From: a virus
Lineage: Duplodnaviria; Heunggongvirae; Uroviricota; Caudoviricetes
Virus record (IMG/VR): IMGVR_UViG_2880395615_000010
Strand: one strand, 5' to 3'
DNA: 64,000 nucleotides
In this document: positions 42,001 through 45,000 of the stretch, one piece after another
Position numbering within the stretch: position 1 is the stretch's first letter
Layout: the number at the start of each line of letters is the position of its first letter
Program-made: the position numbers

Positions 42001-45000
42001 GCTTGCAGTATCACGTGGTGAATTTGTTGCAGGGATTAGCGACCCGAATGATCCGAAATGGGTGAAGGGGATTGAAACCCGCGATTCTGTGAACCAGAAC
42101 CAGCAAGAAACGGAACAGAACGACCAGAAAGCGGAACAAAACAGCCCAAATGCGTTACAAAACGAGCCAGAAACGAAACAGCCTGAACCAGTAGCGCAAC
42201 AAGAACAGGAAAAGATCTGCACCACCTGCGGTCAGAGCGGTGGCGGCAACTGCCCTGATTGTGGCGCGGTGATGGGCGACGCAACATACCAGGAAACATT
42301 CAATGAAAAAAATCAGGTCGAATCTCAGGAAAAAGATCCGGAAGAAATGGAAGACTCTGAACATCATCACAAGGAGGACGCTGGCAATGATCACTATCAC
42401 GATAGCGATGGTGAAACTGGCGAGACGACAAATACCTTAATTAAGGCGAACGATCATCACAAAGCCACATCCGCCAGCAGAATGTGGTACCACCTGATGC
42501 TCGACCTCGAGACGATGGGAACTAACACCAACGCGCCCATAGTGGTTATTGGTGCTGTGTTTTTCGATCCGCAGACAGGGGAAATCGGGCCAACGTTTTA
42601 TATCGTTATCAGCCTAGCTGACGCAATGACCACAGGTGCTGTTCCGGATGGTTCCACCATTGAATGGTGGCTGGCGCAGTCCAGTGAGGCGAGATCTGCA
42701 ATCTTGGTAGACCAGGTAAAACTGAAGGATGCCCTTTTACGGTTCCGGGAATTCATCAGCGAACATTCAGATGAGAAATTCGTGCAGGTATGGGGCAATG
42801 GCGCAACTTTCGACAACACAATTTTACGCCGTTCATATGAACGGCAGGGGATCACCTGCCCGTGGCATTACTGCAACGATCGCGACGTGCGCACAATCGT
42901 CGAACTGGGAAAAACCATCGACTTTGATGCCAAGACAGCTATTCCATTCGAAGGCGTACGCCATAATGCACTGGATGACGCTCTCCACCAGGCAAAATAC
43001 GTTACAGCCACCATACAAAAAATGATCCCGGATCAGGCTGATTTTTAATGTTCAACCCTGATCGCCGCTAACCGCATATAGTTAGCGGCGGTTATGAGAT
43101 ATGGCTATGAGCAGCTTATTTTTAACCGAAGATGAATTGCTAATATTAACGGGCTGCAAATATGCAAGCCACCAGCGAAAATGGTTAATAGAAAATGGGC
43201 TTCCGTTCTATACCAATCGCAGTGGCAAACCGATTGTCAGCCGGGATCTATTTACCTGCAATAAAACTTTACCACCACGCGAGGTAGAGCCGAATTTTGG
43301 TGCGATCTGATGGGAAGACGAAGGAAAAACCCTGAACACGAAAGATTACCTCCAAATGTATACCCAAATAAATATAGTTATGTATGGAAACCAACATCCA
43401 GAGAATCTGTAACACTAACCGCCATCAAAGATGGTTTAGCCGCGTTATGGAAAAAGTATGAGGAAACTGTAAATAACCGCGATCGTGCAATGACATTTGG
43501 TCGCTTGTGGGAAAAATTCCTCGCCAGCGCCTGTTACAGTGAGTTGAGCCCAAGAACACAAAAAGATTATCTGCAACATCAAAAAAAGTTGCTTGCCGTA
43601 TTCGGTAAGGTGCCGGCAGATTCCATAAAACCAGAACACATCCGTCGATACATGGACAAAAGAGGGGAGCAGAGTAAAACGCAAGCCAACCATGAAAAAA
43701 GCAGTATGTCCCGTGTTTACAGTTGGGGGTATGAGCGAGGGTACGTGAAGGCTAACCCATGTGCAGGTGTAAGTAAATTCAAGGCCAAAAACCGCGAACG
43801 ATATGTAACCGACAAAGAATACCAGGCAGTATTAAGCGTTGCACCTCTTCCTGTTTTCATCGCAATGGAAATTGCCTATCTGTGTGCAGCGAGGATTTCC
43901 GATGTGTTATCGCTGAAATGGGAGCAGATTGGAAACGACGGGATCTTTATCCAGCAAGGGAAAACAGGGAAAAAACAGATAAAAGCATGGAGTCCACGAT
44001 TACAGGCGGCGATCGAAAAAGCAAAACAGTTACCAACATCCGCCTATGTAATCAGCAACCAATACGGCAACCGATATATGTACAAAGGCTTTAACGAAAT
44101 GTGGGTAGAAGCAAGAAATCGTGCTGGAAAAATTTCAGGTATTTTAACCGACTTCACCTTTCATGATCTGAAGGCGAAAGGAATTTCAGACTATGAAGGA
44201 AGTAGCCGGGATAAGCAACTTTTCTCTGGTCACAAAACCGAAGGGCAAGTGCTAATCTATGACAGGAAGGTTAAAGTTTCACCAACACTTAATATCCCGT
44301 TACCTGAAAATATTCCAAGAAAATATTCCAAGTAATTCCAAGTGTGATTTTTGTCACTGACTTAATGATGTGTAAGTGATTGAATTTTGGCGGAGAGAGG
44401 GGGATTTGAACCCCCGGTGGAGTTGCCCCCACTCCGGTTTTCGAGACCTATGCTATGGGTTAATAAAATCAATATATTATGTGTTTTATTTGGAATAAAT
44501 ATTCTATATTTAGGATTGAAAAATCAGATGGTTAGCATCAAACAACCTCAGAATATTCCAAGCAAACAGGTTAAAAATAAAACTGCACCCGAACAATTGA
44601 TAACGACAGAAAACGCCTTTTCCGAGCCACCAAAATTACTTCGCATCCTATTTATTGCTCACGTTAACGCCTTGTATAACTCGAGCTCTCCACGGTATTT
44701 AACCTCTCTTCTGTTTAACTATAATTCCAATAAATCTCGTCACTGAGCTCAATCACTTCGAAAGTCAAGCACAATATGAATTTCACATAAGCTATCAATG
44801 AAAATCGGAGGTCATACCATTAATCAACAATAAACCAAGTCTTTCTCATATAATCACTTGACAAACACTCATGATAATTGTAATAAAATATATAAGGCTA
44901 TAATACAATACTGTCAATCAATATTTCATTTATATGAGAAAAAGGCATTTATAATGTCAATTATAAAAAACTGCTTATCATTAATTAACAATGCATTAAA

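Follow-up and report, generated by a model that had tools for sequence, protein, structure and literature searches.

Tandem integration by phages that share an attachment (att) sequence is the standard reading in Escherichia coli strains that produce Shiga toxin (STEC) and in enteropathogenic ones (EPEC) (PMC8112680), and the tandem prophages Sp17a and Sp17b are known from O157 Sakai (PMC2669165). Here, a 64,000-nt stretch of the IMG/VR virus record IMGVR_UViG_2880395615_000010 (Caudoviricetes), referred to below as the window, was analyzed around a 61-nt fragment of the serine transfer RNA (tRNA) gene serU, at which two lambdoid prophages adjoin, A on the left and B on the right. We read this fragment, with a probability of about 0.85, as the internal hybrid att of a tandem array of the two prophages at the bacterial attachment site (attB) in serU, tRNA-Ser(CGA). 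Where prophages lie in tandem at a tRNA gene, a hybrid att between them is an ordinary, well-understood structure, and the present one is new only in the order of the phages. The window shares with classical lambda tandem double lysogens and with Sp17a-Sp17b the direct orientation of the units, the common att specificity and a hybrid att between the units that resembles a phage attachment site (attP). However, the lambda attB is intergenic, whereas the att in the window is the 3' end of a tRNA gene and the two units are distinct phages, each carrying effectors of its own. The prophage-in-prophage arrangement (Nakamura et al. [quoted passage not shown]

Close relatives of both prophages are present at the same serU site in E. 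coli O55:H7 DEC5B (NZ_CP038389.1). This strain shares with the window the 61-nt phage-type core, an nleG-cargo phage with a 100% identical integrase (int) region, an espJ-tccP phage, and the same junction design and repeat offsets. Its order is nevertheless the reverse of that in the window: yodB, B, int_B, core, nleG cargo, A, int_A and serU (int_A and int_B being the integrase genes of the two prophages), and its internal junction joins int_B through the core to the nleG arm, whereas that of the window joins int_A to the espJ arm. In O55:H7 CB9615, a single lysogen, the locus reads yodB, core, espJ, a prophage of ~49 kb, DUF4224, int, intact serU and mtfA. The espJ-tccP prophage of CB9615 occupies the same site and has the same espJ arm up to the core, but its espJ-side core carries the native A..T allele and is joined to yodB, whereas that of the window carries the phage allele and is joined to the integrase of the other phage. 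The espJ-tccP prophages at serU in O157:H7 Sakai (Sp14) and EDL933 (CP-933U) are presumably of the same kind as that of CB9615. Only weak excision of Sp14 has been reported in Sakai, and its putative excisionase (Xis) is predicted to be non-functional (PMC2669165).

The minus-strand sequence at 44388-44448, GGTCTCGAAAACCGGAGTGGGGGCAACTCCACCGGGGGTTCAAATCCCCCTCTCTCCGCCA, matches the 3' part of phage-type serU at 61 of 61 positions and the 3' 61 nt of K-12 serU, without gaps, at 59 of 61; it extends from 3 bases ahead of the anticodon loop CTCGAAA through CCA. With up to 3 mismatches allowed, it is single copy in the window (0 matches after 100 shuffles) and the 29-nt 5' half of serU has no match anywhere in it. 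A preliminary description of this DNA had stated that only the 3' 61 nt of a tRNA-Ser gene, from CTCGAAA to CCA, are present, which proved exact, the fragment being unique and its 5' half absent from the window. The 52 bp which it gave between the int stop and the core were likewise recovered (44336-44387), and the AT-rich espJ-tccP DNA which it placed where the 5' half of the tRNA would be is indeed of low GC content (0.27-0.39 across 44400-45899), with EspJ and TccP-like matches found there. The two differences from K-12 are the two sides of one variable-arm pair, A:U being replaced by G:C, as judged from folding of the K-12 and CB9615 genes, and both of these full-length genes are tRNA-Ser(cga) by ARAGORN. 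At the position of the core, neither ARAGORN nor the Rfam tRNA model called a tRNA, and the fold of the 90 nt equivalent to a full tRNA was not better than that of shuffled sequences (z = -0.08). The fragment is without tRNA function. A functional or tRNA-like RNA was also considered here and rejected: permissive Rfam thresholds yielded sub-threshold matches only, to a plastid 3' untranslated region model (opposite strand; 38.6 bits, gathering score 68), to mascRNA (18 bits) and to part of transfer-messenger RNA, all of which the remnant of the T arm and acceptor explains.

The partners of each arm in other genomes were established by megablast against 5,426 complete RefSeq E. coli genomes and by fetching loci through exact proteins. 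The int side, 40500-44448 (exonuclease, DUF4224, int and core), is 100% identical in DEC5B and two more strains and is found at a coverage of at least 80% in 816 complete genomes; among the matches listed, the core of this segment coincides with an annotated tRNA-Ser in every genome. In DEC5B, the core runs on into the 5' half of serU, followed by mtfA. All 20 other loci fetched via the exact Int or exonuclease protein have int followed by mtfA with intact serU between them (core and flanks checked by sequence in 10 of the 20). The exact Int_A protein is present in many genomes, with mtfA next to it in 10 of 10 loci among the matches listed. The cargo side, 44373-46900 (core, espJ and tccP), has 98-99.7% matches in many O55:H7, O157:H7 and other strains. 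In each of the 10 other loci fetched via the exact TccP protein, yodB lies upstream of the espJ arm, and the displaced native 3' fragment of serU was confirmed by sequence in nine of them. In alignment with these loci, the change from int arm to espJ arm in the window coincides exactly with the limits of the 61-nt block: the sequence to its left is identical to the int arm found next to intact serU and mtfA in DEC5B, and that to its right to the espJ arm found next to yodB and the displaced native fragment in CB9615. The hybrid site passes from A's int arm through the core into B's cargo arm and is attP-like. No bacterial DNA lies between A and B at the junction, and arms joined via the core in this manner are what a tandem array gives. 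Only one core is present in the window; in related genomes, cores bound prophages at both ends.

The same loci bear on the possibility that A resides in a secondary attB inside the effector locus of B, as a prophage within a prophage, and not at chromosomal serU. The core directly adjoins the effector genes of B, and attB sites inside effector loci have been documented (PMC8112680), including one inside a serU prophage in O121:H19 (PMC8767318). However, in all 10 sequence-checked single-lysogen copies, the core beside espJ meets chromosomal yodB-side DNA directly, with no B DNA beyond it, which identifies it as the terminal attL of B itself and not as an internal attB. Moreover, the core consists of serU sequence proper, and no other att is involved. 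Nesting of A within B is therefore extremely improbable, and the espJ-side core is read here as one end of B in a tandem array.

The alleles of the core follow the arms. The G..C allele was found in 13 of 13 int-linked cores and the native A..T allele in 12 of 12 yodB-side-linked cores, with 24 cores coming from the fetched loci, and among all classified cores an int arm joined to an espJ arm was found in the window only. Both single-nucleotide polymorphisms (SNPs) travel with the 3'-side flank, which confines strand exchange to the stretch from the second SNP to the point where identity ends, within ACTCCGGTTTTCGAGACC; this sequence constitutes the anticodon stem and loop and the last 18 nt of the identity block. 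That two lambdoid prophages were integrated at the same serine tRNA attB, as had been suggested initially, is thus supported by the partners of the arms elsewhere, by the allele pattern and by the distinct late regions of A and B. A single circular phage genome wrapped round was ruled out, because the two late regions differ by 3-23% and hence belong to two phage genomes.

The most probable course of events would involve two phages with closely related tyrosine integrases, the attP of each carrying the 3' 61 nt of serU, with Int strand exchange taking place within the last 18 nt of the identity block. The first phage would enter serU, where its own 3' part would rebuild the tRNA while the native 3' part would be pushed to the yodB side. 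The second phage, having the same specificity, would enter one of the two resulting hybrid sites, and the outcome would be a phage-phage junction devoid of bacterial DNA and of the tRNA 5' half. Two histories are conceivable: (i) a resident B lysogen, of the type common in O55:H7 and O157:H7, may have received A at the yodB-side hybrid site of B; (ii) a resident A lysogen may have received B at the serU-side site of A. The core alleles were considered as a guide to the order of arrival and discarded, since both histories predict the observed G..C allele. The sequence in which the phages arrived, like the activity of the att sites, is a matter of inference. Int_A agrees at 323 of 342 positions (94%) with the integrase encoded by the espJ prophages of DEC5B and CB9615, the closest relatives of B, in which int_B is used at the same core. 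The predicted layout of the source locus is yodB, native core, nleG cargo, A, int_A and the phage-type core of the present site, continuing with espJ-tccP, B, int_B, a phage-type core with the serU 5' half (an intact tRNA) and mtfA. As the tRNA reads from right to left in the window, the 5' half and the intact gene would be expected past the right end of B, as the preliminary description proposed; the espJ prophage of CB9615 has intact serU at the corresponding place, beyond its int.

Several observations weigh against this reading. The int-core-espJ junction was found neither in the 5,426 complete genomes nor in phage records when both arms were searched with megablast, and a junction-specific 95-nt pattern had 0 matches in viral, species-representative and metagenome contigs. 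The junction was also absent among the loci listed for the exact Int, TccP, B tape-measure and exonuclease proteins. The loci listed in these four look-ups show int then mtfA, or yodB then espJ; for the B tape-measure protein, the matches listed comprise short draft contigs and one 296-kb contig that starts inside the tail genes of B. The order is B then A in both complete genomes that apparently carry both prophage types (DEC5B, checked by annotation, and 2013C-3264, judged only from hit coordinates ~50 kb apart). The outer junctions and the int_B of the source genome fall off the window, and their existence is predicted from comparison with relatives. Finally, a rare arrangement seen as a one-off leaves some room for assembly error, although such an error is unlikely. 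The A-then-B order at serU is new relative to the 5,426 complete genomes searched, and the arrangement has been seen once.

An assembly artefact could have arisen either as a false join at the att repeat of 61-76 bp or from reads of an excised circular B+A dimer, the true state being the B-A order or a single prophage. The uniqueness of the junction among all collections searched would fit such an origin, as would the presence of the core three times in any such array and the long similar modules of A and B, which complicate assembly. On the other hand, the window runs unbroken for 64 kb across two late-region copies that have diverged, indicating that repeats far exceeding 61 bp in length were resolved. 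No base is out of place at the join, which has the allele expected of an int-linked core and a complete set of arm repeats, and equivalent internal junctions (int-core-nleG arm) are real in 10 of the 5,426 complete genomes, of which Z1323CEC0012 was checked in detail. Given the resolved longer repeats, the expected allele and the repeat set, an artefact is considered very unlikely.

DEC5B also raises the possibility that the window represents a permutation of a DEC5B-like B-then-A array, in which Int excised the whole B+A dimer via the outer sites and the circle reintegrated at serU via the other internal junction. DEC5B has close relatives of both prophages in the B-A order, its int_A region is 100% identical to that of the window over 3.9 kb, and a B+A dimer circle would carry exactly the int_A-core-espJ junction. 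Nevertheless, a permutation requires two rare events where one suffices. Moreover, prophage B is closer to the CB9615 espJ prophage (98.9% over 19.6 kb) than to that of DEC5B (96.8%), and the late region of A is 1.4% away from DEC5B, so the window is not a simple DEC5B derivative. The core alleles fit a permutation and direct tandem integration alike and do not separate them. A permuted DEC5B-like array thus appears improbable, and integration of one phage beside the other at serU is retained as the preferred reading.

The flanks of the core contain a repeated motif consistent with this reading. The 7-mer ATTCCAA occurs in the window in five direct copies and one inverted copy, all within 44312-44730 (Table 1). 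The int-side (P') copies, at -76, -63 and -53 relative to the core, overlap the last codons of int_A, and an additional copy at 44724 is particular to the espJ arm. The offsets of the copies at -76, -63, -53, +42 and +107 are the same in the internal junctions of DEC5B and Z1323CEC0012, and the repeats are also present on the matching single arms of CB9615. The nleG and espJ arms are diverged apart from the repeats, and the motif was not found at the empty K-12 attB. The repeats are probably to be regarded as candidate arm-type Int binding sites, and if read in this way the junction would have a full attP layout. The last codons of int_A (PENIPRKYSK; 44306-44335, plus strand) are encoded by a 13-bp tandem repeat, GAAAATATTCCAA, which also forms candidate arm sites. 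The match of Int_A to PF00589 scored 44 bits against a cutoff of 27. RefSeq labels the DEC5B copy of int_A as 'frameshifted', yet the exact 341-aa protein is recorded for the DEC5B chromosome (CP038389.1). The pairing of the DUF4224 gene with int is kept in all related loci, and its position alone makes the DUF4224 protein a candidate excisionase or directionality factor.

The late regions of A (1-18000) and B (46884-64000) are collinear and in direct orientation. They are 77-97% identical over ~17 kb and contain exact runs of 859, 323, 242, 205 and 162 bp. The preliminary description regarded tandem prophages with near-identical tail modules as substrates for recombination. The substrate point stands, as exact runs of up to 859 bp are enough for homologous recombination, but 'near-identical' overstated the likeness of the modules. 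RecA-mediated recombination between A and B would delete ~45 kb, including int_A, the core and espJ-tccP, and leave a chimeric prophage. The longest exact repeat (859 bp) lies in the tail-fibre genes, at 1927-2785 and 47194-48052, and is the most likely spot for homologous recombination or assembly collapse.

Table 1. Features of the 64,000-nt window, in order of position.
Feature	Position	Strand	Description
Prophage A	1-44387	minus (late genes)	Lambdoid
NleG effector cargo, prophage A	103-690 and 975-1601		
Lambda-type cosN, prophage A	23180-23191	minus	Exact lambda 12-mer GGGCGGCGACCT, upstream of small terminase gene
DUF4224 protein	43101-43310	plus	Pfam PF13986; immediately upstream of int_A
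int of prophage A (int_A)	43310-44335 (including stop)	plus	Tyrosine recombinase, 341 aa; Pfam PF00589, PF22022
Int-side (P') arm repeats	44306-44345	plus	Three direct (A/T)ATTCCAA(G), at 44312, 44325 and 44335
att core	44388-44448	minus	3' 61 nt of serU, tRNA-Ser(CGA), phage-type allele
Prophage B, cargo end and late region	44449-64000	minus	Tail fibre, lom, J, sodC insert, tail and head genes
Cargo-side (P) arm repeats	44490-44561	plus	Inverted TTGGAAT at 44490 (+42), direct ATTCCAA at 44555 (+107)
espJ	44954-45607	plus	T3SS effector ADP-ribosyltransferase; NCBIfam NF033643 equivalog, 410 bits against a cutoff of 300
tccP-like effector gene	45932-46804	plus	Pfam PF04806, 5 stretches; RefSeq names under the match
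sodC	52856-53383	plus	Cu/Zn superoxide dismutase, 175 aa; between J and I-like tail genes, prophage B only
Major capsid gene, prophage B	61857-62885	minus	Frameshift near 62675-62678 relative to the intact gene of A

The rest of prophage B, including int_B, lies beyond 64000. Its first cargo gene, espJ, has 99.7% DNA identity to espJ of CB9615, and the tccP-like gene that follows contains proline-rich repeats of the EspF type (a 141-bp unit in 4.3 copies, 46184-46783; Tandem Repeats Finder). The O55:H7 strains TB182A and RM12579 match prophage B only from inside tccP on (query positions 1789/1812 and beyond), which shows that their core-side cargo end differs from those of the window and CB9615. 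The sodC insert of B, which is also annotated in CB9615, produces a gap of ~900 bp in the A/B alignment. In the major capsid gene, residues 1-70 and 70-336 of the 342-aa protein of A align to B in different frames. Because this gene is frameshifted, B is probably defective by itself; the split may mean that B is morphogenesis-defective, or it may be a sequencing error.

That lambdoid prophages in tandem contribute to genome plasticity is well recognised for enterohaemorrhagic E. coli (EHEC) and EPEC, and the consequences considered here are not novel in principle. The present array sets an NleG-carrying phage beside an EspJ/TccP-carrying phage, and Int- or cos-dependent events could newly connect the effector genes with another integrase and immunity region. 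In strain typing and assembly, a break or misjoin at the serU junction can also be foreseen. In classical lambda tandem lysogens, cos-to-cos packaging is possible without excision. In the CB9615 relative of B, the cosN 12-mer of A, GGGCGGCGACCT, likewise lies upstream of the gene for the small terminase (5595-5606 of the fetched locus, minus strand). Assuming collinearity of the source genome with CB9615, the cos site of A and the predicted cos site of B would be ~46 kb apart in the same orientation, which would be a packageable length. It is conceivable, although we consider it unlikely, that the junction is a working composite attP and that the tandem order permits the formation of a new transducing phage by in-situ cos-to-cos packaging without excision. 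The hybrid genome would then combine the structural genes of B, espJ-tccP and the attP formed by int_A, core and espJ arm with the integrase, immunity, replication and lysis genes of A. In that case, the effector cargo of the capsid-frameshifted B would gain a transfer route on the functions of A, whereas the opposite order, as in DEC5B, would not give this linkage.

Prophage A shares 98.6-100% identity with the DEC5B prophage proximal to serU. Its left end falls off the window, with ~1.6-1.9 kb missing by comparison with DEC5B, and its gene order is NleG cargo, tail, head, terminase, cosN, lysis, tRNA trio, early genes and int. The tRNA trio (Met/Ile-type CAT, Arg TCG and Arg TCT) and the small RNA (sRNA) STnc100 after it lie at 29360-29875 on the minus strand. 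The position of the trio is where Stx phages carry stx; no stx is listed among the open reading frames (ORFs) of the window or in the DEC5B annotation of the region, no dedicated stx search having been made. The early region contains a hok/sok type I toxin-antitoxin locus at 34120-34295 (minus strand; sok RNA, 117 bits) and the DicF sRNA beside dicB at 39873-39924 (plus strand; 77 bits).

A spurious 119-aa ORF starts in the att core and has no exact protein on record. The phage allele gives Pro at its residue 15 and the native allele Leu, which would make the ORF diagnostic of the junction. At 44373-44387, the int arm of the phage shows patchy similarity (TAAGT-ATTGA) to the chromosome downstream of serU, ~15-20 bp past the 3' end of the tRNA; the att segment of the phage therefore seems to have been copied from a serU locus along with some flank. 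In GCA_016760395.1 (VNIZ01000001.1, 3859-11139), a remnant of ~7 kb is located at serU between yodB and int. It contains genes for NleF-like and NleB/SseK-like effectors and a truncated exonuclease, keeps both att cores, and has the appearance of a relative of these prophages that has undergone extensive deletion.

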